DNA from: an uncultured virus (IMG/VR IMGVR_UViG_3300027808_002699)
Taxonomy: Duplodnaviria > Heunggongvirae > Uroviricota > Caudoviricetes
Strand: one strand, 5' to 3'
Virus record (IMG/VR): IMGVR_UViG_3300027808_002699
DNA: 20,000 nt
Position numbers and translations under genes: made by a program. Below, one piece after another: positions 6,033 to 20,000 of this stretch. The notes under the pieces are model-generated. The model made no database searches, was not told the DNA's origin, and worked only from the letters and a program-made list of their open reading frames with translations. Every line of letters starts with the position of its first letter. The first letter of the stretch is position 1.

Positions 6033-6470
6033 CTACTGCGGCGGCAACCTTTTGGTAAGATTGAGACGCTCTGCCTCAGCGGGATTATCGTGTTTCCAGG
6101 TGTGATGCGCTCGGCACAACACCTGACAGTTGGATGCGTCTAAATGGGAACCGCCTCTGCCGCGTGGAATAATCTCATCGACATCTAATGGTCCCCAACA
6201 TTCTATTAAGTTTACAATATGCTTTGCTTGACATTGCATATGGTCTCTCAATAGAACTTCTATTCTAACAACTTCCCTATCTCGCATTTGCGATTTAGTT
6301 TTTTTGCTAAACATGTTGACTGGACCCCTTTTCATAGAAGAGGGGCGGTCTTCACATTCATACACTCTAGCGATTCCATCCGAATAAACACGCAAAGAAC
6401 CATAAATAGGGCAATTTTCTTTAGAACAGTTCTCTTTTCTGCCTTCACATTCACCTTTTCTTTTATTCAC
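6033..6470 (-). CDS. HNH-fold endonuclease adjacent to terminase
   Basis: RDHMQCQ...C...DVDEIIPRGRGGSHLDASNCQVLCRAHHTWKH. Confidence 0.8.
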   Translation of the reverse strand: MNKRKGECEGRKENCSKENCPIYGSLRVYSDGIARVYECEDRPSSMKRGPVNMFSKKTKSQMRDREVVRIEVLLRDHMQCQAKHIVNLIECWGPLDVDEIIPRGRGGSHLDASNCQVLCRAHHTWKHDNPAEAERLNLTKRLPPQ

Positions 6471-7795
6471 AATATGATTCTTACCTTTGTTTTGTTGTTT
6501 TTACCGACTAATGCCTGTATAGCGCCTGATACAGCATCAACTTGGTCATCGTGCGCACCATATGGGAATACTTCGCATTCGTCAATTAAAATGCTGTTCC
6601 ATCCTGCTCGCATAACAAATACATTTCCAGATTCAGATGCTGAAGAAAATACTGAAGCGCGTTCTTGTTTAGAACCAGATGCTCTGATTCCGCGAAAGTT
6701 ATAACCTTGTAAAACAGTTCGTGCGTAGTGGTCAATAACATTCACTCCAGATGAACCTGGTTCTTGCTCCATGATAATTGCTGTTCCAATTCCGTCACGA
6801 GATGCAGTTTGAGTAATCTTTTTTTCTACTTCGTATGGAGTACCACGCATACGCTCAATGTCCAAGATGAAGTATCTTCCATCCTTCATTCCAACAAGTG
6901 CGCCTACCGTCCAGTCAGGGTCATTGCTTTTTGTTTTTACAGTTGCCGCCAAGTCCCAGTATCTAACTGTTTTCATTCCTTCTGGAATATTGCCAGTGAT
7001 TTGAAACCAGTCACCCTTAAACATTCCGCCTTCTTCGCGGATGTCCCAGTTACCATCAAGCAGTCGTGAACGCTCTACATAGTCAAGTTCATTAAGACCC
7101 TTGATATACGCTTCGGCATCAAGAGATGGGTTATCACTAATTCTTGAAGGCATAAACTTTCGCTCTGTGCTTTTGTTAAGAATGAAACGCTCGTACACCC
7201 AGTTGTTTCCAGGACCACCTGGGTTTGTCGCTCCTCTTGTTCTAAGAGGAATGTCTGCTGCTGTTAATCCACAATCAGGACATGCTTTCATGTCTGCTTG
7301 GACTGCTGGCTTACGAACACGAGAGAACCCAACATAGCGATAAACGCGGTCAGTCTTCCACTGTGTTAATTCGTCTACTCCAACAAAGTGATAAGCAAAT
7401 GACTGGAACTTATAACGGTCCTCATCTCGTTCACAATGGTCAAAAGAAAGCATTGCTCCAGAGGGGAATGTCCAACGCTTATTGGTTACGGAATATGTAG
7501 CGCCACTTCCAGCAAGCCATTCGTTACAACGGTCGATAAAACCGTCTGGTCCAGAAAGTTGTGGGTATGTCTGACGCAAAAGAAGCGCCGAATACCCAGG
7601 GATACATACATACTGAAGAGCACTTAGTAGGAGAGTGTCAGACTTTCCACCACCAGCGGCTCCACCAAATAGTGCTTCTCTAGTCGTTCCCCATGTCAGG
7701 AACGCTGTCTGCTTCGGGTGAGGCGTGTGGGGAAGCCTCAGTGCGCACGGCTGTTTCCAGTCCGTTAGTGTCGATAATTGGTCCCGTGATGTCAT
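6467..7795 (-). CDS. terL: Terminase large subunit
   Basis: PHPKQ adenine motif, Walker A GGAAGGGKS, Walker B FVGVDE, ATNPGG coupling motif, nuclease motifs RYWDLA and HDDQVDA. Confidence 0.96.
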   Translation of the reverse strand: MTSRDQLSTLTDWKQPCALRLPHTPHPKQTAFLTWGTTREALFGGAAGGGKSDTLLLSALQYVCIPGYSALLLRQTYPQLSGPDGFIDRCNEWLAGSGATYSVTNKRWTFPSGAMLSFDHCERDEDRYKFQSFAYHFVGVDELTQWKTDRVYRYVGFSRVRKPAVQADMKACPDCGLTAADIPLRTRGATNPGGPGNNWVYERFILNKSTERKFMPSRISDNPSLDAEAYIKGLNELDYVERSRLLDGNWDIREEGGMFKGDWFQITGNIPEGMKTVRYWDLAATVKTKSNDPDWTVGALVGMKDGRYFILDIERMRGTPYEVEKKITQTASRDGIGTAIIMEQEPGSSGVNVIDHYARTVLQGYNFRGIRASGSKQERASVFSSASESGNVFVMRAGWNSILIDECEVFPYGAHDDQVDAVSGAIQALVGKNNKTKVRIIL

Positions 7796-8369
7796 CTATA
7801 ACCTCTGCATCAATAGTGCCGTCCCATGCATTAAGAACATTGTTTGGCAGGTCTCCTGCTTCGACAAGTGCTGCAAGTACGGCGCGTTTTCTATCTTCAT
7901 CTTCAACAAGAGAATGTCTCATCTCTGTTTGTATTGCTCCACCGCCAAGGCCAGTAAGTTCTACCTTGAGGGTATTTGAGTCACCCCATTCATCAGGCCA
8001 GCGCTTAGCAAGGAATGCTTGAGCGGCTTTCCAGTCGCCTTGACGGGCTTCTCTAAACCAAGAGACCACAAGACCTGCTTGTGCTTCTGCTTCGGCCTTC
8101 ATCATGCTTTGCACGAATTCAAGATATGGGGCTTCTAGTTTGGTTGGTGCTTCACCTTGTTCGATGCGCCACTGTTCTTCTGAACCGCGCTTAACCCATC
8201 CTGATACTGCTGACTTAGAAATACCTGCTGCCTGCGCGGCCATTGAAGGACGCATGCCTGCACGAATCAAATCCACAATGGTTGGACCCAAGATTTCACA
8301 AGTTGTGACTTGAACTCCACCAATTTTTCGTGGTGCAGCATCACCGACAGCCTTTTTCCGCTCAGCCAT
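7680..8369 (-). CDS. terS: Probable terminase small subunit (HTH)
   Basis: Directly upstream of terL and overlapping it by 116 nt; N-terminal HTH (AAQAAGISKSAVSGW), DWKAAQAFLAKRWPDEWG and VELTGLGGGAI motifs. Confidence 0.75.
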   Translation of the reverse strand: MAERKKAVGDAAPRKIGGVQVTTCEILGPTIVDLIRAGMRPSMAAQAAGISKSAVSGWVKRGSEEQWRIEQGEAPTKLEAPYLEFVQSMMKAEAEAQAGLVVSWFREARQGDWKAAQAFLAKRWPDEWGDSNTLKVELTGLGGGAIQTEMRHSLVEDEDRKRAVLAALVEAGDLPNNVLNAWDGTIDAEVIDDITGPIIDTNGLETAVRTEASPHASPEADSVPDMGND

Positions 8370-9892: not shown

Positions 9893-10342
9893 TTATTTCC
9901 CTCGGTATGTAGGAAATTCGTAATTTATTCCTACCTGATTAAAGCACTCCTTGAGTCTGTTAGACCAGTGCTCTCCTGCGTACATCCGTACCAACTGTAG
10001 GTAAGTCCCTCTGAAGAGGTTCGTATGCCCTCTCTGTGGACTGGTGTGATGTGCTAACTCATGTAGTACTACCCACACCTGTGCTTTCCTACCTAGTACT
10101 ACTTCCTTAGTGTCATAGTAATAAGTAGACCTACTGCCCTTGTATGAGTTCTTCCATCTGAACTTGACATCTGTAATACCCAGGGTATGTGCAATGTCTT
10201 TAGCCTCTTGGAGAGTCTCTACTCTCTTACCTAGGTCTCTATTGGCCTTATTGGACTTATGGAAGCATAAGTGCTCTGCTGCGTAGGTTTTATTGGCAAA
10301 GAACGATGGCTCGGCCTCTTCTTGTATCTTTAATTCGAACAT
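9893..10342 (-). CDS. Zincin (SprT-like) metallopeptidase
   Basis: VVLHELAHH (HExxH) followed by GHTNLF (third ligand, H-x3-F). Confidence 0.8.
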   Translation of the reverse strand: MFELKIQEEAEPSFFANKTYAAEHLCFHKSNKANRDLGKRVETLQEAKDIAHTLGITDVKFRWKNSYKGSRSTYYYDTKEVVLGRKAQVWVVLHELAHHTSPQRGHTNLFRGTYLQLVRMYAGEHWSNRLKECFNQVGINYEFPTYRGK

Positions 10343-10350
10343 ATGTTCAA
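10335..10350. promoter_or_regulatory. LexA (SOS) box-like site overlapping the protease start codon
   Basis: TCGAAC-ATAT-GTTCAA versus the actinobacterial consensus TCGAAC-N4-GTTCGA. Confidence 0.55.
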
Positions 10351-10772
10351 TCTATCTCTTTCCCTCTGGACAGTTCTTCCTTTTTATCTGCCTCTCCATC
10401 ACGAATTTCGAACTTTCCTCTTGCTAACTTGCGAAAGGAGTTCGGATGGTCAGTAATGTATTTAACAGCAGTTGGGTATGAGAATCCTGAAATATCGGCA
10501 ACTTCTTGTGTTGTTATCTCGCTACCTACATTTTCCTTAATGTACTTATCGATGCTTGCATACTTAGCGGAACGCTTTTCTTTTTTTTCTGAGATGACCA
10601 CTTCGTCAAACTCATTCGCTCCTACTACCTTGATGTCAATGTTGTAGAACTGAGCAGCCTTAGATAGGGGCATTCCATCTCGCCTAGCAACATCTTTTAC
10701 ATATCCCCACCGTCTTGCCTCGTGTTCAAGACGGATATTTTCGAATTTAGGGATGGATGATGAATCATTCAT
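10347..10772 (-). CDS. HTH/winged-helix DNA-binding protein
   Basis: Start reassigned to ATG 10772 (SD AGAAAGGA); ITTQEVADISGFSYPTAVKYI HTH followed by beta wing. Confidence 0.72.
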   Translation of the reverse strand: MNDSSSIPKFENIRLEHEARRWGYVKDVARRDGMPLSKAAQFYNIDIKVVGANEFDEVVISEKKEKRSAKYASIDKYIKENVGSEITTQEVADISGFSYPTAVKYITDHPNSFRKLARGKFEIRDGEADKKEELSRGKEID

Positions 10773-11083: not shown

Positions 11084-11112
11084 AATATAGCGTACCACAA
11101 CGGGTGTGTAAA
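11084..11112 (-). promoter_or_regulatory. sigma70-type promoter heading the leftward gene block
   Basis: TTTACA-17-TATATT on the minus strand. Confidence 0.6.
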
Positions 11113-11206
11113 ACCAACAGGGGTCAGGTGGATAGGACGGGTAGGGGACCTATACAGTGGTATTTCGTCAAAAATGTGTGTGGGACCCGCGGGCAGCGGG
11201 CGTTTG

Positions 11207-11275
11207 TAAGGTCAGCCTAACAAGGGTGGGGGGGGTATTAACCACGCAGAGTGATGGTAGGTCAGCCTAACAGAA
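11207..11275. promoter_or_regulatory. Two DtxR/IdeR-like iron boxes (11207-11225, 11257-11275)
   Basis: Direct repeat AGGTCAGCCTAACA; the 19-mers match TWAGGTWAGSCTWACCTWA at 14/19 and 15/19 by manual comparison. Confidence 0.65.
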
Positions 11276-11300
11276 CAGGCGTTCGGTCACTTAGAGTGAT
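11241..11300. promoter_or_regulatory. Two BldD-box-like palindromes (11241-11255, 11286-11300)
   Basis: ACCACGCAGAGTGAT and GTCACTTAGAGTGAT, each one mismatch from nTnACnCWGnGTnAn. Confidence 0.5.
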
Positions 11301-11317
11301 GAACGAACAAGCGTTCG
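11273..11317. promoter_or_regulatory. Two LexA (SOS) box-like sites (11273-11284, 11304-11317)
   Basis: GAAC-AGGC-GTTCG and CGAAC-AAGC-GTTCG. Confidence 0.65.
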
Positions 11318-11409
11318 CCAAGCGTGAGACGCTCTGTGTGGGCTTCTAAGACACGCTACCGATAGCCAGGCCTTGCCATAGCCTAGATACCGTGCAAGAG
11401 CGTAGGAGA

Positions 11410-11700
11410 GCGTTGGGGCGCGTGTGGTGGTGTCGCGTGTGTGCATGGTGGCACCGTGTCGGGTGCCGTGTGTGGCTCTGTTGTGTGCGCCTGTGTGCGC
11501 CTGTGTGCGGTGTCGCGGTGCGTGTGTGGCGCGTGTGTGCATTGTCGGGCATTGTCGGGCTTGTGGGGCGTTGTGGCGCGTGTGGTGGTGGCGTGTGTGT
11601 GGCGTGTCGCGTGTCGCGTGTGTGGGCAGATAGCAAACGACCCACACGCGCGAGGCGTGTGGGTCGTGTTGTGCGTGTCGGGTTGTGTGCGTGGTGTTCT
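11410..11700. repeat. Low-complexity GT/GC-alternating non-coding tract
   Basis: Very few A on the plus strand; recurring GCGCGTGTG, TGTGTGCGCC x2, CATTGTCGGG x2, GCGTGTC tandem. Confidence 0.8.
11637..11667 (-). terminator. Hairpin terminator candidate
   Basis: ACGACCCACACGC-gcgag-GCGTGTGGGTCGT; core shared with the hairpin at 12730-12762. Confidence 0.6.
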
Positions 11701-12097
11701 AGATATCTTCTGACCAAGTAAGCGCGTAGTCAGTCCACATGGCTAGCGCGTCTTCACCAAGCGCGGTGGCGCGTGTGTGTTGTTCGTGTAGTGCATTGAA
11801 CACCATCGCGCGTAGGTCGCTATCTTCGACAGTCGCCCAAGCGATAGCGAGAGCACCCGACATGGCGCGCGTGAGTTCGTCTGCCTTGCGTGTTGTGCGT
11901 GTGTTGTGTGCGCGTGTGTCTTGCGCGTTCAGGCTTGCGCGGTGTGCGTGTGTGCGTGAGTGGCGTACCGTGTCGCGTGGTGTGCGTGGTGTGCGTGTTC
12001 CGAATGTCTCGCGCAATGACCACGCGACTAGCACGATAGAGAGCGCGAGCATCGCGAACGCGAACGCGAGTGAGAGTGTGAGTGTTACAAGTTCCAT
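11699..12097 (-). CDS. Hypothetical membrane-anchored protein
   Basis: ATG 12097 after GAAAGAAAAAAACAA; N-terminal TM, T/R/H-rich linker, helical C-terminus. Confidence 0.6.
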   Translation of the reverse strand: MELVTLTLSLAFAFAMLALSIVLVAWSLRETFGTRTPRTPRDTVRHSRTHAHRASLNAQDTRAHNTRTTRKADELTRAMSGALAIAWATVEDSDLRAMVFNALHEQHTRATALGEDALAMWTDYALTWSEDI

Positions 12098-12211
12098 TTG
12101 TTTTTTTCTTTCGTTGTGTGCGGTGAGTACCACACGCTAGGCGCACCGATGCATGACCGATGCGCCTAGCGCGTGGTAGGCGCGCCGTGTGTGACGCGCC
12201 TACCGTGTGCG

Positions 12212-12547
12212 CTAGTTGGCGAGTAGTGCGCCTTCATAGTCGCGCTCTACCGAGCCGAACACATCGCTACGCTCTGACGCAAGGCGGGCGGTGGTTGCCT
12301 CTGCCATGAGTGACACGCGGAGCATTTCGCGCTCTGCAATGTTTGCCGAGTTGCGTTGTGCCTTCTTCGCAAGTGCGGTGAGTTGTTGCGTGGTGAATGT
12401 GACACCGCTAGCAAGTGCTAGGCGTTGCGTGTGGTTCATGCCTGCCGTTGGCAAGAATGACGCGCGGAGTGCCTCGCCTGCCGTGCTACTGATGCGAACC
12501 AGTACACCATTGCGGTACACCGTGACTTTGTTGGTATTTGTGGACAT
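12212..12547 (-). CDS. Hypothetical early protein (111 aa)
   Basis: MSTNTNKVTVYRNG..., SD GAAAGAGG; own promoter TTGCCA-17-GACAAT at 12596-12624. Confidence 0.72.
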   Translation of the reverse strand: MSTNTNKVTVYRNGVLVRISSTAGEALRASFLPTAGMNHTQRLALASGVTFTTQQLTALAKKAQRNSANIAEREMLRVSLMAEATTARLASERSDVFGSVERDYEGALLAN

Positions 12548-12729
12548 GACAACCTCTTTCGTGGTTAGCGTTTCGGCGGGATTGCCGATTTGCATATTGT
12601 CAAACTATCGGGGATAAGTGGCAATGTGGTGGATTGTTTGAGATTATTTATTTGTAGTGTGCAAGTATCGGCTCTGAGCCTTATGGCATAAGGGTTTGCG
12701 CTCTCAGATTATTTTTCCCAATAACGACA

Positions 12730-12762
12730 AAAGCCCCACACGCGCTAGGCGTGTGGGGCTTT
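12730..12762 (-). terminator. Intrinsic terminator
   Basis: AAAGCCCCACACGC-gctag-GCGTGTGGGGCTTT just after the stop at 12777. Confidence 0.75.
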
Positions 12763-12776
12763 CCGTGTGGGTTTGG

Positions 12777-12923
12777 TTAGTCGTATCGGTTCGAGTCCGT
12801 TTGGTCGTACTTGTCTTCTTCTTCCATGTCGTAATCGCAACAACCACAATCGCAATCTTCGTTGATTATCTCGTCAAACTCTCCTGTAAGACATTCGCCA
12901 GTTTCGTAGTTCATAGTTCCCAT
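12777..12923 (-). CDS. Very acidic Cys-containing micro-protein (48 aa)
   Basis: MGTMNYETGECLTGEFDEIINEDCDCGCCDYDMEEEDKYDQTDSNRYD; SD GAAAGAGG; promoter GTGGAA-17-TAGTAT at 12968-12996. Confidence 0.68.
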   Translation of the reverse strand: MGTMNYETGECLTGEFDEIINEDCDCGCCDYDMEEEDKYDQTDSNRYD

Positions 12924-13602
12924 TGTGTCGCCTCTTTCGTAGGTCACGGCGGAAGTGCCGTACTGACATACTAGGGCACACTCTCCCACATTCCACCATT
13001 CCACCCATGATTATTTTTCGGCGTGATTATCGGGGGCGCGAGACGGGCGAGCCGATACCCTGTGAGTGGGTAGCGTCACGGTAGGTGAGACCACACAGAG
13101 TGACGGCGTGGGTCGGTTGCGTTACGGTACGAGAAAACGCTGTGAGTGGTCGGAGTCGGTGGCATTATGCAACCTATTGGGTCGGTTTCATAAAAAGACC
13201 CGCATCCCCTGCGCGTGAAAAATGGTATTAAATACATAATAATCCCAAGTAAAATGATTTCCAGACCTCGGTGTGGGCCTCCCCCGCTTGTGGGTGGGAG
13301 AGCCTTCGGTCCTTCCTGTGCCCGCGTGTCGCTTTAGCCCCGCAGTTTCTCGTTCCTAAGTTGGAGTCCTGGGTTCGTTTGGCTTTTACCGCGGGTTGAA
13401 TCTCCCTCATCCCGCGTTTTTTTATTTCTCTTCCCGCGTTTTTGTTTTAAACCCGCAATCTTTATTTTAAAGTTGCCTCTCCACCGTCGGTCTGTCGATT
13501 TGTAATTGCTCTCAGGAGAGCGCCCTAGGCGATTGTCCTGCAATGTCTAATCCCTCAGTTGGCAAGTCCCTGAGTCGCTGTCCTCGTCCCTTTGGGATGG
13601 CT

Positions 13603-13680
13603 CTACAACTGCTTCACCCACCCATTGAAGGCGAAGATGGCGAAGGTCCAGGTTACGATATTGATTATAATGGTTGTCAT
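13603..13680 (-). CDS. 25-aa hydrophobic micro-protein
   Basis: Below the track cutoff: MTTIIINIVTWTFAIFAFNGWVKQL; strong promoter TTGCAT-17-TATAAT (with TG extension) at 13717-13745. Confidence 0.55.
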   Translation of the reverse strand: MTTIIINIVTWTFAIFAFNGWVKQL

Positions 13681-13848
13681 TTATTGTGAATGTTTTTCTG
13701 TTGTGTTGTTAATTATATTATAGCATGCTCCGTGGCAGGATGCAACCTGTCCTTGGTTCTTTATTTAGTCCTCGTCCCGCCGCCCTTGGCTCCACCCGCT
13801 GTCAGTTGTGTTAGACAACGGGTGAAACCGTTTGGCGAGAGAGTTTCG

Positions 13849-14031
13849 TTACAGTCCGCAGGCTGTGAGGAAGCGTGTGCGGTCGAAGGCTGGGTTGTCC
13901 TTCTTCAGCGTCACTGCAAGCGCGGTGACCACTGCGGTCATGCCCTCAACCTGTGAAGGGTTTGTGATGCGGTGGCAGTCAATCTCTGTCTTGATGTTCT
14001 CTGCCATTGCTACATAATCTTTGCGTGTCAT
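13849..14031 (-). CDS. Conserved small phage protein (MTRKDY...DNPxFDxxRF)
   Basis: Recognisable widespread phage motif; promoter TTGACA-18-TACAAT at 14093-14122; AGAGAAAG leader. Confidence 0.85.
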   Translation of the reverse strand: MTRKDYVAMAENIKTEIDCHRITNPSQVEGMTAVVTALAVTLKKDNPAFDRTRFLTACGL

Positions 14032-14353
14032 TTGATTGTTTCTTTCTCTGTTTGACCAAGGATGAATTTCCTAGGTCATTTCCTATAATTATATTGTATC
14101 ACGCTCTGCCATGCTCTGTCAAGCCGAAAGGCGTGATTTGTGATTCTTTCTCTCGGGCATAGGTTTCGTTAAGCAACTCACTAAGTAGATTGGTTTGCCA
14201 TTATCCCGCGCGACCCTCAGCCGAGAAATCCCTCTGCCCTTGGTCGGATAATCTTCCTCGGCCTCCAGATAGTTACGATGCCCTAGTTGGCAAGTCCGTG
14301 GCCCGAATCTCTCGGTGCCTCTCGGTGCGTATTACGGTATGCCCGCGAGCAGT

Positions 14354-14385
14354 GAGGGAGAGCCACCCCGCGGTGACCCTCCCTC
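14354..14385 (-). terminator. GC-rich hairpin after the 14393 gene; related hairpin at 14825-14853
   Basis: Minus strand GAGGGAGGGTCACC-gcgg-GGTGGCTCTCCCTC; the G-U pairs work only on the minus strand. Confidence 0.6.
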
Positions 14386-14392
14386 GTTCGCC

Positions 14393-14728
14393 CTAGTCCT
14401 CGTAGTCGTAGCCCTCGTCTACCGCGTTCAAGTCCCAGTCCACTGACTTGACTCGTACGATTGCCCTCAGTTGTCCTACGACTGGTGCTGTCTCGCCCGC
14501 CTCCCATGAAAGGTTGTGGGAGAAAGTGAACGATAGTTCGCCCTCTGCTCCGTCTTCCATAGGAACACATGTGAGCCATCCCGTGCTCGGTGCGGTGAAC
14601 TCTGTCGCGCCCGCTGCCTTGAGGATTGCAACGATGTCGCCGTAAGCCGTGGCTCCGAGACGGTTGTCGTACCACTCCGCGGTGATGCTTGCCCTCAGTT
14701 TGTTTGTCGTTGTTGTTGTCATGACCAT
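14393..14728 (-). CDS. Hypothetical acidic early protein (about 111 aa)
   Basis: MVMTTTTTNKLRASITAEWYDNRL...; promoter TTGCAC-19-TATACT at 14752-14782. Confidence 0.75.
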   Translation of the reverse strand: MVMTTTTTNKLRASITAEWYDNRLGATAYGDIVAILKAAGATEFTAPSTGWLTCVPMEDGAEGELSFTFSHNLSWEAGETAPVVGQLRAIVRVKSVDWDLNAVDEGYDYED

Positions 14729-14860
14729 ATTCTTTCTCTTGGTATATATACAGTATAGCACGGACTCGCATAGACCGTGCAACTTTTGGAACATTTCTTT
14801 ATGAAACTTCCTCGTCCCCTTGGGGGGAGAGCCGACCCTGTGTCGACCCTCCCTTTCCCG

Positions 14861-15043
14861 TTAGAGTCCGTGGCGTGAGTACGCTTCTTCTTGGAGCCAC
14901 TCCGCGATTTCCAGGAGTTCCTGTAGCGTTGCTTTGTTCAACTCGCGGGCGTTGTAGTAGTCCGCCATTTCTTGGATACCTAGGTCATCTTCCCATGACT
15001 GTGGTTTGTCGGGTGTTCCGTATGCGATTTCCCAATCATTCAT
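14861..15043 (-). CDS. Acidic micro-protein; C-terminal half paralogous to 17285-17380
   Basis: SD GAAAGAGG; -10 TACACT at 15092-15097. Confidence 0.75.
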   Translation of the reverse strand: MNDWEIAYGTPDKPQSWEDDLGIQEMADYYNARELNKATLQELLEIAEWLQEEAYSRHGL

Positions 15044-15403
15044 TTTTTGTGCCTCTTTCGTTTGGCTAAGGGCTTCTCCCTTATGTATTTAAGTGTACAC
15101 GCTATTGCACACTCTCCAACACGAAAAGGCAAGAAAGATAGTTGTAGTGTGCAAATAATTTCCCGCGCTTCTAAGCACCCGCGTCAGGACTAATAAGCCC
15201 GCAGTTGGCAATTCCCTTGGGCAAACTTCCTGGGTCGCCCTGGTGCGTCTCAGCCCACCCCGCGATTGTTTAGGAGGCGCTTGCGGGGTGGGAGAGAGTT
15301 CTTTTATCTCTTGGTTCTTTTCTTCCCGCGGTGCGTGTCGGTGAGAACCGACATACAGAACGCAGGGAGAGCGATGACTCCCGCTAGGAGGTACATGAAC
15401 CAC

Positions 15404-15622
15404 TCAAGAAGATACATTTGTGAGTTCCTCGCGGTCCGCGCGGTAAAGTTCGTGCATAACCGCTTCGACTGCCCGCAGTTGTTCAGGCGTGTCGAATGTC
15501 ATTCGGAACTGCAATGAGTCCGTGGTTCCGCCCGTGGGGCTTTCCGTGAAGACTTCGATAGTGGTGTTGGTTATTCCCGCGTATCCGATGATTTTGTTTC
15601 CGTTTAGTGTTGCCATTTTCAT
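15404..15622 (-). CDS. Hypothetical early protein (72 aa)
   Basis: MKMATLNGNKIIG...; SD AAAAGGA; promoter TTGCCC-19-TACAAT at 15661-15691. Confidence 0.75.
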   Translation of the reverse strand: MKMATLNGNKIIGYAGITNTTIEVFTESPTGGTTDSLQFRMTFDTPEQLRAVEAVMHELYRADREELTNVSS

Positions 15623-15739
15623 TTTTCCTTTTTCTCTATCAGGTATTTCCTGATACTTTAATTGTATCACACTCTTGCACAAAGCGGGCAAGATTTCGAG
15701 TCAGTTACTAAGTTTTTTTTAGCAACTGACTCTCGGTCT

Positions 15740-15907
15740 TTAGGCTGCGACTTGGATGATTTCGAATCCCGTGATTGCGTGGTCACGGTCGTAGCCGACT
15801 TGGTTCTTGCGGTGTGTGTGAACCGCGGTCAATGCTTCCCCGTATGTTGGGAAAGTTCCCAAGAATCTCGCGGTGTTGCCTTGCATGTCGATTGCTTCGT
15901 ATTTCAT
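15740..15907 (-). CDS. Hypothetical micro-protein (55 aa)
   Basis: Not in track: MKYEAIDMQGNTARFLGTFPTYGEALTAVHTHRKNQVGYDRDHAITGFEIIQVAA; SD AAAAGGA; promoter TTGCAA-17-TATAAT at 15945-15973. Confidence 0.75.
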   Translation of the reverse strand: MKYEAIDMQGNTARFLGTFPTYGEALTAVHTHRKNQVGYDRDHAITGFEIIQVAA

Positions 15908-15991
15908 ATTTTTCCTTTTTCTCTCAGGTTTTCCTGATAGTTATATTATAGCATGACCTCTCGGTCGTTGCAAGTTATTAGAGAGTTTTGT

Positions 15992-16225
15992 TTAGAAACC
16001 CTCGCCGTTGTTATTCAGCCCGCAAGACCCGCAACCGTCCCAGCAGATGCACTCCTCGGCAGGTGTGTCCTCGTCCCACAAGTCGCCTTCGGTTGCCCAC
16101 TCCTCGGCATCAGCGCCCGCGAACCGCTTGCCCTGGATTGTCTGCGCACGGAGACGGCGACCGTCTGCGAACTCTCGGCGCTCATCTGCGCCCCAGCGAT
16201 TTACTTGTTTTGTGTTCTTTCTCAT
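15992..16225 (-). CDS. Hypothetical protein, probably leaderless; basic N-terminus, acidic Cys-rich C-terminus
   Basis: ATG lies 6 nt after TATACT (16232-16237); MRKNTKQVNRWGADERR...CICWDGCGSC. Confidence 0.7.
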   Translation of the reverse strand: MRKNTKQVNRWGADERREFADGRRLRAQTIQGKRFAGADAEEWATEGDLWDEDTPAEECICWDGCGSCGLNNNGEGF

Positions 16226-16385
16226 AATAACAGTATAGCACACACTTCCACGCATGAGACACCAAACAGCAACATTCGTAAGTTTTTTTTAGCAACTGAC
16301 ATCCCGCGTGACGCTTGGGGATTTGCTTTGCCCTAGTCTTTTAGTCCCGTGAGCCACGCCCTGGAGCCGTCCTGGTGCGCCTTAG

Positions 16386-16415
16386 AGCCCGCGGAAGTGT
16401 CTCATTCCGCGGGCT
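16386..16415 (-). terminator. Hairpin terminator candidate
   Basis: AGCCCGCGGAA-gtgtctca-TTCCGCGGGCT; loop motif GTGTCTC shared with the hairpin at 18005-18040. Confidence 0.65.
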
Positions 16416-16425
16416 GGCGTTGTCC

Positions 16426-16632
16426 TTATGCTGCCACTTCTTCCCAGTTCCATTTTGCTGCTTCGGCTGGTGTGCACCAAAACTGCATGACGGATTTCGT
16501 TACGCCACCCTCTATGCCCATTTCGTAGCCTCTGACATAGACAGGTGAAAAGTCGCGCACTTCTATCACCATTACCGCCTGCGGGTCTTCCTTGTTCCAG
16601 TTGGTGACTGAATATCTAATATTTTTTTTCAT
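16426..16632 (-). CDS. Hypothetical early protein (68 aa)
   Basis: MKKNIRYSVTNWNK...; AGAGAAAGAGAAAAT leader; -10 TACACT at 16759-16764. Confidence 0.72.
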   Translation of the reverse strand: MKKNIRYSVTNWNKEDPQAVMVIEVRDFSPVYVRGYEMGIEGGVTKSVMQFWCTPAEAAKWNWEEVAA

Positions 16633-16822
16633 ATTTTCTCTTTCTCTTTGTTTTGGAATGTCTGCGCCCCGCCCTCTATGTAGCCTCCATCTTTCAACTT
16701 CAACAACTACTAGGTGACTAGGCAGTGGGCGCACTTTAGGTTCTTTGTCCTATAATCAAGTGTACACGCTCTGCAACAATATAGGACACAATTCCTCAAA
16801 CTATTTTTAATTTCTTTTTGAG

Positions 16823-16851
16823 TTGCATCCGACCCTAGTCCGTGCTATAAT
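16823..16851 (+). promoter_or_regulatory. Rightward consensus sigma70 promoter
   Basis: TTGCAT-17-TATAAT with TG extension; the only one of this family I saw on the plus strand. Confidence 0.75.
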
Positions 16852-16857
16852 GTAATC

Positions 16858-16946
16858 AAGGGTGGGGACTGCCTTCGGTTCCTCATCCCTAGGGGGTCGG
16901 TGGCTCCTTCGGTCACTCCCGCCGCCCTCTTGCCTCTTTCTGTTTT
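16858..16946 (+). ncRNA. Candidate two-hairpin small RNA
   Basis: Begins right after the promoter; stems 16859-16890 and 16891-16930, both with CCTTCGGT at the apex; U-rich tail; no SD/ATG. Confidence 0.55.
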
Positions 16947-16972
16947 ACGCGGCTCCCGCTCTTGCTGTTATC

Positions 16973-17152
16973 TCAGCAGAGTTCACACTCGAACTCTGCT
17001 GATTTTCCTGCCTCTTCGAAGTGGTAACGCTCGCTCGTGGTTCCTTCTGCGATGTGTGCATCACACAGGCATGAATAGTTGCTTGGCTCCCCAGGCTCGT
17101 CGGACATTTTATAGATTGCAATGATTGTGTTCATTATTTGTTCCTTTCTCAT
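16973..17152 (-). CDS. Cys-containing micro-protein (alternative start 17134)
   Basis: MRKEQIMNTII...CLCDAH...CELC; promoter TTGCCC-19-TATACT at 17159-17189. Confidence 0.72.
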   Translation of the reverse strand: MRKEQIMNTIIAIYKMSDEPGEPSNYSCLCDAHIAEGTTSERYHFEEAGKSAEFECELC

Positions 17153-17284
17153 AATAATAGTATAGCATGCCCTTGCACGAAGCGGGCAACATTTCTTCCA
17201 CATTCGTAAGTTTTTTTTAGCAACTTACCTGCGGTGGGTTGGGGTGTCTTTGCCTGTCAGCCAGTTTCACCCCAGTTCCGCGTC

Positions 17285-17380
17285 CTAGTCCTCGTGCCGT
17301 TCGTGGGCTTCATCGGCCAGCCATTCGGCTAGTTGTGCGAGTTCTTCCTCGGTGGCGTTTTCCAATGTCTCTGGGTTCAT
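17285..17380 (-). CDS. 31-aa acidic helical peptide
   Basis: Not in track: MNPETLENATEEELAQLAEWLADEAHERHED; SD GAGAAAGGA; promoter TTGCAA-17-TATAAT at 17411-17439. Confidence 0.72.
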   Translation of the reverse strand: MNPETLENATEEELAQLAEWLADEAHERHED

Positions 17381-17442
17381 GTTGTTTTCCTTTCTCAACC
17401 TGATAAGTATATTATAGCATGCCCTTGCGGGCTTTGCAACTC

Positions 17443-17631
17443 TTATTGAAGATTTGTTTTTGCGGAGATTTCCGCGACCAGTGAGGCGAGAACAGCCCAG
17501 CCGAAAAGCATCCCTACGGAAGCAATTGGGTTGATGTCCCGCGATGCCATGAGCGCAATGACTCCTACGAGTACTCCCACGGTGGCAAGACTCCCTGCCA
17601 CAATTCCCGCGATGATTAGAATATTTTTCAT
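17443..17631 (-). CDS. Two-TM membrane micro-protein
   Basis: Two hydrophobic segments; purine-rich leader; directly downstream of the 17648 gene. Confidence 0.75.
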   Translation of the reverse strand: MKNILIIAGIVAGSLATVGVLVGVIALMASRDINPIASVGMLFGWAVLASLVAEISAKTNLQ

Positions 17632-17647
17632 TTTTTTCTTTCTTTCC

Positions 17648-17821
17648 TTAGCGCCGATTTGGCGCTAGTTGTTCCGCCAGCATTTGCTGAAAGAGTGTTT
17701 GACCGCTTGCGAAGTTTCCGCATTGGCACTCGGTCAAGACGCTCGGCATATTGTCGGGGACTTCGGTTGCCCAGTTGCGGAGGCAGTCATCGCAATGGAA
17801 GTGGAGGAGTGTTGTTGTCAT
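17648..17821 (-). CDS. Zn-ribbon micro-protein (57 aa)
   Basis: MTTTLLHFHCDDC...ECQCG; SD GAGAAAGGA; promoter TTGCAC-19-TACACT at 17851-17881. Confidence 0.75.
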   Translation of the reverse strand: MTTTLLHFHCDDCLRNWATEVPDNMPSVLTECQCGNFASGQTLFQQMLAEQLAPNRR

Positions 17822-18004
17822 GTTGTTTCCTTTCTCAACTTGATAATAACAGTGTATCACATACTCGCACAGACCGTGCAACTTTTCAGACATTTCCCAA
17901 CAATTTTTTGGGAGCGCCCTGAGCCGTTTAGTGGGGTTTGGCATCACGATGCCCTAGTTGGCAAGTTCCGCCCGCGTCGCTTAAAACGCCGTGTGGAGCC
18001 TCTC

Positions 18005-18040
18005 AGCCCGTTCCGCAGTGTCTCGTCCGCGGAACGGGCT
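18005..18040 (-). terminator. Hairpin terminator candidate
   Basis: AGCCCGTTCCGC-N12-GCGGAACGGGCT downstream of the 18067 stop. Confidence 0.6.
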
Positions 18041-18066
18041 TTGAGTGGTCTTACCTCTCCTTTGGC

Positions 18067-18381
18067 TTATCCGTAGACAAGTTCTCCAAAGAAGCCATAC
18101 TGCCAAATGTTGTCATGGTCAAGGTGGTCTGTTTCGCATTCTGCGAGGTTTGACCAGTCGCCACCATTTTGGAGCCACAATTTAATTCCTCTAACAAGCG
18201 TTTCCGTGTTGAAGGTGAGTTTATCTTTTTCGTGCATGACTGTGATATCTCCGTTTTCGTCTGAGCCGACGGCATCAACTTCTACCCAGTAGCGGGTGCC
18301 GTTTTCTTCTTTGACATATTCGATGATTTCGTCAGTGAGCATTACCGTGTAGGTAATTTCAATTGCTGTTGCTGTTTTCAT
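18067..18381 (-). CDS. Conserved-looking acidic phage protein (104 aa)
   Basis: YW...RGI...D..D.I.Q...FGELVYG pattern; -10 TACACT at 18419-18424. Confidence 0.8.
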   Translation of the reverse strand: MKTATAIEITYTVMLTDEIIEYVKEENGTRYWVEVDAVGSDENGDITVMHEKDKLTFNTETLVRGIKLWLQNGGDWSNLAECETDHLDHDNIWQYGFFGELVYG

Positions 18382-18609
18382 TTTTTTCTTTCTACTTGGG
18401 CTTTCCCTTGTGTAATTAAGTGTACAGGATGAATATGCAATAATGACAGATTTAAGGGAGATATTTTAGATTTCTTTTTAGGGTGCGCGCTTTGCCCTAG
18501 TTGGCAAGTCTTTTGCGCATCGCTTAGAACGCGCCCTGGAGCGTCTCGCGGTTATTGGGCGAGCGGAGGAGCCGTGCAGGTGTCCACTCCCACACGGCTC
18601 CCGCCCTCG

Positions 18610-18783
18610 TTATTCTGCGATTATTTCGTTTTCGCAATTCGGGCATTGCGCGGTCTTGAACCATCCCTGAACGAAGCGAGTCTCTTGGTACTCCAGCGTC
18701 CCAGCGAATCCGCAGGTCCAGCCCATAGTTTCGTCTTGCATCTCGCAAACGAATTCTTCTGTTTGGATATCTGTGTTTTGCAT
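18610..18783 (-). CDS. Zn-ribbon micro-protein (57 aa)
   Basis: Not in track: MQNTDIQTEEFVCEMQDETMGWTCGFAGTLEYQETRFVQGWFKTAQCPNCENEIIAE; SD GAGAAAGGG; promoter TTGCAA-17-TATACT at 18813-18841. Confidence 0.75.
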   Translation of the reverse strand: MQNTDIQTEEFVCEMQDETMGWTCGFAGTLEYQETRFVQGWFKTAQCPNCENEIIAE

Positions 18784-18933
18784 TTTGTCCCTTTCTCGAA
18801 CTCAATAATAATAGTATAGCACACCCTCTCACGCTTTGCAACTATTTGAGAAGGTTTTTTTTAGCAACTGTCCCTTGCGGCTCCCGCCCTCGCGGTTCGG
18901 GGGTGGTTGTGGGGCTTTCGCCCCACTCGCTCC

Positions 18934-19158
18934 CTAGGCGTTTGCTCCCTCGTAATCGCGGGCGACTGTGCGGAAAGCGTTTGCGCGCTCGGTGGCAACA
19001 CGGGCGCGGATTGCGTCAGCGTCAATTACGATTTCAGCCTTTGAGCCGATTTCGTCAGGCAACCCACCCTGGCGGTCGAAGCGAAGAAACGCGCCTGTCG
19101 CGAGGTCGCTTACTTTGATTGTGGCGGTCTTGCCATATGGATATTTTGTGATATTCAT
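18934..19158 (-). CDS. Hypothetical early protein (74 aa)
   Basis: MNITKYPYGK...; SD GAGAAAGGG; promoter TTGCAA-17-TAAGAT at 19188-19216. Confidence 0.75.
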   Translation of the reverse strand: MNITKYPYGKTATIKVSDLATGAFLRFDRQGGLPDEIGSKAEIVIDADAIRARVATERANAFRTVARDYEGANA

Positions 19159-19265
19159 CTTGTCCCTTTCTCGAACTTGATATATATATCTTACAACACT
19201 CTCCCACACTTTGCAACCTTATTTTCATATTATTTTTAGAAAGTTACTTGTAGTGTGCAACTATA

Positions 19266-19281
19266 TGTTTCACGGGAAACA
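19266..19281. promoter_or_regulatory. parS-like site
   Basis: TGTTTCACGGGAAACA, one mismatch from the chromosomal parS consensus TGTTTCACGTGAAACA. Confidence 0.7.
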
Positions 19282-19336
19282 TTCCTAATCTTGCGGTCTA
19301 GCGGTCGGTTGTGTCAGAGTTATTATGAAACTGACC

Positions 19337-19421
19337 CTCACCCTCAGTGGTTAGCGCCTACCCTCAGTGGTCGTCACTCTCGGTGGTCGCTCACTACTCT
19401 CGGTGACCGAACCCTTGTTCG
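19337..19421. promoter_or_regulatory. Four tandem BldD-like YHAC-N5-GTGR boxes followed by a LexA box
   Basis: TCAC-CCTCA-GTGG 19338, CTAC-CCTCA-GTGG 19358, TCAC-TCTCG-GTGG 19374, CTAC-TCTCG-GTGA 19394; CGAAC-CCTT-GTTCG 19408-19421. Confidence 0.55.
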
Positions 19422-19539
19422 TATCATTGCATTATGCAACTGTCTGTCTCCTGGCCCTCAAAAATGGTAAGAAGTAATAAATAATCCCAGTAAAATGATT
19501 CCATGATGCCCGTGGCCCCTGCTCTTGAGAATACGCAAT

Positions 19540-19571
19540 GCCCCGCAGGGAGAAAGAGATACCTGCGGGGC
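19540..19571 (-). terminator. Hairpin terminator candidate
   Basis: GCCCCGCAGG-N12-CCTGCGGGGC after the 19583 stop. Confidence 0.6.
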
Positions 19572-19582
19572 TTTTCAGCGAA

Positions 19583-19810
19583 TTAAATTGTGAGTGAAAG
19601 TTTCTCGTGGTGTTTGTAAGCCCACTTGCGGGCGTACGACATTGAACTGAATCCCTTGGGGTGTTCGCTCTCTGTGGCGTTTTGACCGCCGTTGCGATAA
19701 ATATCTGCTTGGATTGTCACATGCCATTTAGCGTCACTGCCCTGGGATATTGTATAAACTCCGTTAATTGCGGGTGCTTCAAGTTCGACTGTTTTCATTG
19801 TTTCTTTCAT
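19583..19810 (-). CDS. Hypothetical early protein
   Basis: 75-aa ORF; ATG 6 nt after TATAAT (19817-19822); -35 GTGGAA at 17-bp spacing. Confidence 0.75.
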   Translation of the reverse strand: MKETMKTVELEAPAINGVYTISQGSDAKWHVTIQADIYRNGGQNATESEHPKGFSSMSYARKWAYKHHEKLSLTI

Positions 19811-19834
19811 AGTTATATTATAGCACGCTAATTG

Positions 19835-20000
19835 CTATTTTCCACCATGTTTTTGTTGCAATTCTTCCCATCGTGCCTTCGTCCCAATGAACCAGTGAGG
19901 CTTCGGTTCGTAAATCCCCTGCTCCTCAATTGCGTTATACAACTCATCGTCCGAGACTGTCGGCAGAAACTCCGTGCGCGACATAATTTCTTCGGCTTGT
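19835..20000 (-). CDS. 3' part of a hypothetical protein entering from beyond the window
   Basis: Open frame ...QAEEIMSRTEFLPTVSDDELYNAIEEQGIYEPKPHWFIGTKARWEELQQKHGGK*. Confidence 0.6.
   Translation of the reverse strand, partial: QAEEIMSRTEFLPTVSDDELYNAIEEQGIYEPKPHWFIGTKARWEELQQKHGGK

Follow-up and report, generated by a model that had tools for sequence, protein, structure and literature searches.

Putative host-regulator sites at a fixed landmark upstream of the terminase genes in uncultured freshwater phages

Control of phage promoters by host regulators has been described for CtrA in alphaproteobacterial phages, Spo0A in phi29 and LexA in GIL01 (PMC9437464), and host regulator sites in phages are usually read as signal inputs. 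In T5, DnaA boxes have been described and an injection-stop function has been proposed for them in silico (Davison, 10.1101/866236, in the available part of the report). At lambda cosB (R3-I1-R2), the I1 site is bound by the host protein IHF (PMC4856287, in the part of the text available). A comparison of the locus described here with related phages suggests that what counts is where a protein is bound and not which protein it is, which, if true, changes the reading of such sites.

The window, i.e. the whole 20,000-nucleotide stretch that was analysed, makes up the final 20 kb of a virus contig of 74.7 kb (62% complete; 44% GC), which encodes terminase subunits, a portal, an HK97-type capsid, siphovirus tail genes and WhiB. 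The phage occurs in freshwater metagenomes, and it is therefore, together with the genes it encodes, considered an uncultured lake actinophage. Nearly all genes in the window read leftwards.

Operator-like sites and their match to host regulons

Six operator-like motifs for three regulators and a G run had been predicted at 11207-11317, and all of them are present; they are listed here with the neighbouring features of the window.

11699-20000 (minus strand): early block of small genes with strong consensus promoters; scattered LexA sites at 14527 and 19408 and a BldD-like site at 13091
11637-11667 (minus strand): terminator-like hairpin, an inverted repeat that presumably closes the early block
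11330-11635: GT-rich non-coding tract (70% G+T; the sense strand is CA-rich), which separates the cassette from the last early terminator
11304-11317: LexA box 2, perfect match
11287-11299: BldD-like site 2, one mismatch to TNAC-N-CWG-N-GTNA
11272-11285: LexA (actinobacterial SOS) box 1, one mismatch to CGAAC-N4-GTTCG
11257-11270: IdeR/DtxR-type single-dimer site 2, 14-mer, one mismatch
11242-11254: BldD-like site 1, one mismatch
11228-11235: G8 run, followed by TATT
11207-11220: IdeR/DtxR-type single-dimer site 1, 14-mer, one mismatch, in the slot between the G run and the CCTATAC box
7680-8369 (minus strand): terminase small subunit (TerS), phrog_4102
6467-7795 (minus strand): terminase large subunit (TerL), phrog_979, psiM2 / Gordonia Chidiebere-group / Cantare-like

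Six sites fall within 120 bp, whereas the maximum was three in all 200 genome-wide local dinucleotide shuffles and four in 3000 shuffles of the surrounding 1.1 kb; these are consensus matches to IdeR, LexA and BldD strings that we take to be representative, from a motif set picked post hoc. The clustering thus exceeds the shuffled controls that the original prediction had named as its first check. Taken one motif at a time, LexA matches are enriched genome-wide (7 versus 1.2 in shuffles), and BldD-type matches alone are not (9 versus 15.7).

The two iron-regulator sites hold as 14-bp single-dimer sites (TTAGG-N4-CCTAA) and fit poorly as 19-bp two-dimer operators, the length originally proposed. 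The fit to the 19-bp operator consensus that we assume is poor, with 5 and 4 mismatches, 19-bp matches show no enrichment genome-wide (8 versus 9.5 in shuffles), and the second site read as a 19-mer would overlap the LexA box. A single-dimer half site consisting of two CCTAA motifs is reported to bind one dimer of S. erythraea IdeR in vitro with a KD of 78 nM (10.1101/2021.02.12.430932, in the available part of the report). The last five sites of the window stand 15.5, 15, 14.5 and 17.5 bp apart from centre to centre (about 1.5 turns), and the inter-site spacing across all cassettes is broad (10-40 bp), with no single period. A 22-nt segment (11258-11279) comprising the second IdeR site and a LexA half is also present in a lake phage from outside the TerL set (L044). 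Searches of cultured-phage DNA with the region or with the IdeR+LexA unit returned no match or two chance-level matches each, and no exact DnaA box was found in the window cassette or in the window's 9-kb part of the early block.

Comparison with host-lineage genomes bears out the predicted regulator assignments well for the IdeR-type and LexA sites and moderately for the BldD-like sites. When GTDB was scanned with the relatives' IdeR-type palindrome, 107 matches were obtained; among the 80 listed, 25 are Actinomycetota by title, 11 of which stand before an FTR1 iron permease gene and 5 before solute-binding proteins. The 20 nt at 11204-11223 of the window are identical to a site before the FTR1 iron permease in an Ilumatobacteraceae genome (L164), and the DtxR-family domain PF02742 is encoded in three of five host-lineage genomes. 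LexA boxes are present in all five (control, 0), including one locus before imuA' and one before an error-prone polymerase gene.

A BldD-like gene (PF21179) is present in four of the five host-lineage genomes. The encoded protein scores 138 bits against NF050110, which is under the equivalog cut-off of 250, and contains RXD-X8-RXXD, which we take to be the c-di-GMP motif. In freshwater Ilumatobacteraceae, loci for the BldD-like protein (L243:1210-1737) and for a BldD-like box upstream of a peptidoglycan hydrolase gene (L228:1500-2746) were identified, and the box holds the same intergenic place before this gene in eight genomes, with variable flanks (four genes checked). The box gave 13 matches in 11 of 36 genomes (control, 5), and the first BldD-type pattern performed no better than its control in 61 genomes of the family. 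Another Xre-family regulator may possibly bind the BldD-like sites. For the MerR-like palindrome of the relatives, matches in 6 of 36 genomes did not exceed the control, and no link with a host regulon emerged; the MerR-like and GntR-like labels are ones that we assume.

Because of the host-lineage matches and the lack of a LexA DNA-binding domain in all five (incomplete) phage contigs, the clustered sites are very likely host-regulator sites, as judged from sequence. Phage-encoded proteins might instead bind the palindromes, or the palindromes might be neutral copies of host DNA. Helix-turn-helix-like proteins are encoded by the phage (TerS and, by eye, ORF 10347-10772), and the contigs are only 43-79% complete; against these points, three unrelated palindrome types each match sites of host regulons, and the sites persist where the flanks diverge, in addition to the absence of the LexA domain, which renders both alternatives very improbable. 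ORF 10347-10772 encodes 141 aa with a helix-turn-helix-like segment and no Pfam or PHROG match, and its homologues lie elsewhere in relatives. A LexA-like box with one mismatch is present at 10336-10349, at the junction of this ORF with ORF 9893-10342.

The sites also provide a host clue for uncultured phages. Here they point to freshwater Ilumatobacteraceae as the host, an assignment that is somewhat more probable than its contrary, given that other freshwater actinobacteria may share the motifs. A TerL search of GTDB genomes gave no host-linked contig.

A fixed landmark and an interchangeable slot in related phages

The first IdeR site is enclosed by two short boxes that recur in related phages and are referred to here as the landmark. 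The corresponding features of the window are listed below.

11224-11239: landmark box 1, G-run + TAT (TerL-sense strand, ATACCCCCCC), invariant and shared by the window with 15 relative loci
11170-11193: A-tract and GGGACCCGCGGG inside the landmark; resembles, in sequence only, the region right of the record end of Arthrobacter phage Liebe
11149-11155: landmark box 2, CCTATAC (GTATAGG on the TerL-sense strand), invariant
11084-11112 (minus strand): sigma-A-like promoter of the operon leading to terminase, present at the landmark in 2 of 15 phages

The TerL search yielded 39 loci, one of which is identical to the window. Every non-identical locus that extends 3.99 kb or more upstream of TerL (13 loci) has the landmark, and so do L017 and L027; it is absent from L033, which extends 3.88 kb upstream. 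On the TerL-sense strand, its order is ATACCCCCCC, usually a T-tract, and then GTATAGG, with a distance between the boxes of 81-86 bp (mean 83.6 bp, or 8.0 helical turns). The pairing of box 2 with the C-run occurs once per genome scanned. The landmark stands where the early-gene block ends, and the TerL gene lies 3-4.8 kb downstream of it.

The original prediction had pointed to related phages as the place to look for equivalent cassettes, and these were found at the landmark in 15 relative loci. Counting the window, 16 of 16 phages have between one and five host-type sites within 110 bp upstream of the landmark, and in 15 of the 16 a host-type site occupies the slot just after the C-run. The phages do not form an independent sample, since TerL identity among several of them is 91-100%. 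The slot of the 15 phages contains an IdeR site in one, LexA in four, a MerR-like site in three, DnaA with a MerR-like site in one, and a BldD-like site in six, two of the last being hybrids with a LexA half. The slot sites differ even between L011 and L014, the TerL proteins of which are 98% identical. In L011-type phages, the gene that follows the window's promoter is approximately 2 kb away and the cassette remains with the landmark. DnaA boxes are present at this spot in 11 of the 15 relatives, in a variable arrangement, and the host-type sites persist while the flanks diverge. The identity of the sites at the landmark varies freely, and their place is fixed. Scans of metagenomes for the landmark returned mostly noise, with sites at 5 of the 80 loci examined. 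CCTATAC was also considered as a -10 element or late promoter and was rejected, as it has no conserved -35 and does not recur before late genes.

Several other repeated elements were observed in the early blocks. The palindrome TGATATATCA is repeated many times, often 27 bp apart, in the early blocks of L005, L011, L014, L020 and L026, and one copy is located inside a promoter spacer, so that the palindrome could be a genuine operator, perhaps one bound by a phage protein. In the window, early promoter modules of the TTGCAA-17-TATAAT type are repeated at 13200-13250, 15700-15975, 17400-17440, 18810-18845 and 19480-19790, and these repeats cause assembly joints between copies. A parS-like palindrome with one mismatch to the consensus that we presume for it is located at 19268-19279, and the contig additionally encodes proteins with ParB-like domains (L050:738-3604). 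GT-rich-like tracts are present in relatives and before the C-run of the cos-type phage G103.

Promoters, genome ends and the role of the cassette

The -35 element claimed at 11107-11112, approximately 95 bp from the cassette, is present. The proposal that the cassette is a logic element for the leftward operon is not sustained, because the slot is swapped among relatives, the relatives mostly lack a promoter at the landmark, the next gene after it is convergent in at least 6 of 14 relatives, and promoter cores are avoided. None of 103 sites overlaps the 64 predicted promoter cores in seven early blocks (104 kb), where 5.6 are expected under random intergenic placement (P=0.003), the promoters being pattern predictions and the site patterns being tuned on the phages under study. 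With the 61 clusters moved as blocks, 4.3 are expected (P=0.015); looser definitions in 15 phages place 1 of 185 sites in a promoter core, and none of 38 LexA sites lies in one. The copies of the motifs in host genomes abut -10/-35-like hexamers, unlike the phage sites.

Some promoter-linked role is still allowed, because 12 of the 103 sites precede a -35 by no more than 100 bp (7.4 under the null, P=0.059), six of them at 42-50 bp. Host regulators could tune promoters from a distance (about -80) or by roadblock, and in this manner sense iron, DNA damage and c-di-GMP. The position of the window promoter 95 bp from the cassette agrees with such regulation, and CtrA, Spo0A and LexA sites provide precedents in phages (PMC9437464, in the part of the text available). 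However, for 55 of the 64 promoters the 100 bp upstream are free of sites, no promoter core contains a site, sites of different regulators occupy the same positions, and most relatives have no predicted promoter at the landmark. A site overlapping a conserved promoter, or holding a fixed place at one, was not seen across the phages examined. Regulation at a distance is thus an unlikely explanation.

The sites might alternatively act as a sponge, in which tens of replicated genomes would titrate LexA, IdeR and the BldD-like protein, as well as DnaA in the relatives. This would induce SOS recombination, iron uptake and wall hydrolases and slow host replication, and the sites could stand anywhere in non-coding DNA. 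Titration fits the avoidance of promoters and the density of the sites, which are spread through the early block, half of which is non-coding, with 0.64-1.06 per kb versus 0-0.05 per kb elsewhere in all five genomes (at least 13-fold, a raw value that includes the larger non-coding share of the early block). The phage also encodes likely iron users, namely WhiB and 2OG-Fe(II) oxygenases. However, a decoy should keep its content and ignore place, whereas here the place is fixed in 16 of 16 phages and the content changes, and the window's 9-kb part of the early block has no exact DnaA box. Titration has some chance of being the explanation, albeit a minor one.

Occupancy is the most economical reading, because the place is conserved, the identity of the protein is not, and promoters are avoided. 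We tentatively favor, as the best reading, a landing pad that acts by being occupied and that probably marks a genome end or a site cut by terminase; host proteins would probably serve as a physical coat on the DNA and not as signal readers. Host LexA, IdeR and the BldD-like protein would bind the cassette sites, and dimers on alternating faces could coat about 75 bp over the last five sites. Regulators that respond to different signals would constitute a hedge, so that the spot is occupied in any host state. The landmark might be the recognition and cut site of terminase (pac or a terminal-repeat boundary), a weaker part of the proposal, and a dimer in the slot may bend or organise this site, as IHF does at lambda cosB. 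The upstream dimers may stop RNA polymerase that has started at the strong early promoters, or they may form a cap that protects the cut end from exonucleases. The purpose of the sites scattered in the early block may differ from that of the landmark cassette.

The landing pad was the second branch of the original prediction and is the better supported one; within it, end protection or organisation of a terminase site is plausible, and an injection ratchet is physically weak. With the force formula that we assume and c/Kd taken as 100, one site per kb would give a ratchet force of only about 0.06 pN, and about 3 pN would be reached only over the cassette itself. Counter-silencing of Lsr2 was likewise rejected: PF11774 is absent from all five (incomplete) host-lineage genomes, and the early block has 51% GC versus 43.5% elsewhere.

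The landmark has the pattern of a terminase site in that it is unique, non-coding, of fixed spacing, provided with an A-tract, and located upstream of terS and terL. Contig depth is flat across the site in two runs, both of assembled contigs, which cannot show ends. Among 17 truncated relative contigs, one (L006:1-20) begins right at the second landmark box, possibly by chance. A replication origin is not favored, given that an iteron-like TGACAG/CTGTCA array with C-runs, a probable replication origin, lies elsewhere in the relative G001 (L080:13290-13470), yet no iterons are evident in the rep gene of the window phage.

In cultured phages, record ends, including that of Liebe, were taken as physical ends. 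Liebe has a C-run before its record end; after the end come GCGGGTC and a T-run, and a DnaA box stands 34 bp from it. The DnaA pair of a relative matches 175 cultured-phage records, and the 60 listed include Wofford, Comrade and A3Wally. The pair lies 60 bp before the 11.2-kb terminal repeat begins in Streptomyces phage Wofford, before the right-end block of small genes in Comrade, and 1.75 kb inside the terminal repeat, off its boundary, in A3Wally. The ends of Coral and Kumao have G/C runs in other arrangements. In the five cultured phages closest by head genes, no exact matches to the C-run, LexA, IdeR or DnaA motifs were found, and 14 kb of psiM2 contained no matching landmark.

LexA+DnaA cassettes are present in 72 viral contigs (59 distinct). 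Of 44 other lake-phage records searched, 19 have a detectable TerL. In seven of these, which represent about four families, a LexA+DnaA or IdeR+LexA cassette precedes TerL by less than 3 kb; in the other 12, the cassette is farther than 3 kb from TerL or follows it. In the cos-type phage G103, the cassette is 1.8 kb from the C-run. Most sites are scattered over a 20-30 kb early block and are not at the landmark, and a packaging role leaves these unexplained. An unannotated non-coding gap of Comrade (121.5-122.9 kb; L074:5470-6940) contains a DnaA pair together with a perfect CRP-type palindrome and with palindromes of the AAGTTAC type that resemble the L005 ones, which makes Comrade a cultured phage with a mixed cassette. 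Other lake phages (L040:2850-3050; L430) have CRP-type TGTGA-N6-TCACA sites interleaved with LexA, IdeR or DnaA boxes.

Comparison with known systems

The T5 injection-stop region (IRD'-spacer-IRC') is similar in that host-protein boxes are placed where the early block of a large siphovirus ends, within a non-coding tract rich in repeats, and an entry signal of the T5 type has been considered for the present phages, in which the early block would enter first and bound host proteins would anchor the DNA or pause injection until early genes act. This anatomy of early genes, tract and boxes matches that of T5 (10.1101/866236, in the available part of the report). One T5 record has DnaA boxes beside a LexA-like palindrome, DnaA boxes recur at the landmark in most relatives, as described above, and the sites are confined to the early block. 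Against such a signal, LexA, IdeR and BldD are, to our knowledge, not membrane anchors, a terminal repeat can only be supposed, because the flat depth of assembled contigs cannot show ends, and a ratchet would be as weak as calculated above. The T5-like phages have a fixed DnaA-box pattern, whereas at least five interchangeable site types are found here, and the window cassette lacks DnaA boxes, and with them the T5 arrangement of box pairs within fixed inverted repeats. T5 has a long terminal repeat and two-step entry, whereas the window phage is known from contigs alone. The T5 model is itself an in silico proposal (10.1101/866236, in the available part of the report), and an entry signal is quite unlikely here.

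The landmark also resembles lambda cosB, in which a host-protein site and an A-tract lie between fixed phage boxes with set spacing, upstream of the terminase genes (PMC4856287, in the part of the text available). Lambda cosB has one dedicated bender and two copies of the TerS box, whereas here the two boxes are unlike each other, the proteins would be signal-responsive repressors, and the cut site is predicted only; TerL is phrog_979 and psiM2-like, so the landmark falls outside the lambda-type cosB. The phage promoters controlled by CtrA, Spo0A and LexA are comparable in that a phage genome carries what look like true sites of host regulators; there, the sites are tied to promoters and specific to one regulator, whereas here promoter cores are avoided and the sites are swapped among relatives. 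The DnaA pairs of Wofford, Comrade and Liebe are similar in setting, being host boxes in non-coding DNA at a repeat boundary, an end-proximal block or a genome end; they comprise one or two site types, are unannotated in the records, and accompany terminases unrelated to that of the window.

It is possible, and is proposed with more reserve than the landing pad itself, that any tight-binding host dimer, recruited through a swappable operator module, can serve as a structural part (bender, roadblock or end cap) at a DNA end or packaging site in several unrelated actinophage families, with the DnaA and LexA boxes of T5 as one case. A swap test of the sites is offered for the role of host proteins at the T5 injection-stop region, and for how large phages define and protect their DNA ends; Liebe, Wofford and T5 are cultured phages with simpler versions. 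A literature search, whose coverage left out most subscription journals, found no such arrays in actinophages. In comparison with the known systems, the fixed landmark, the interchangeable slot and the measured avoidance of promoters are new, and the locus appears to be a variant of host-protein boxes at phage boundary regions.
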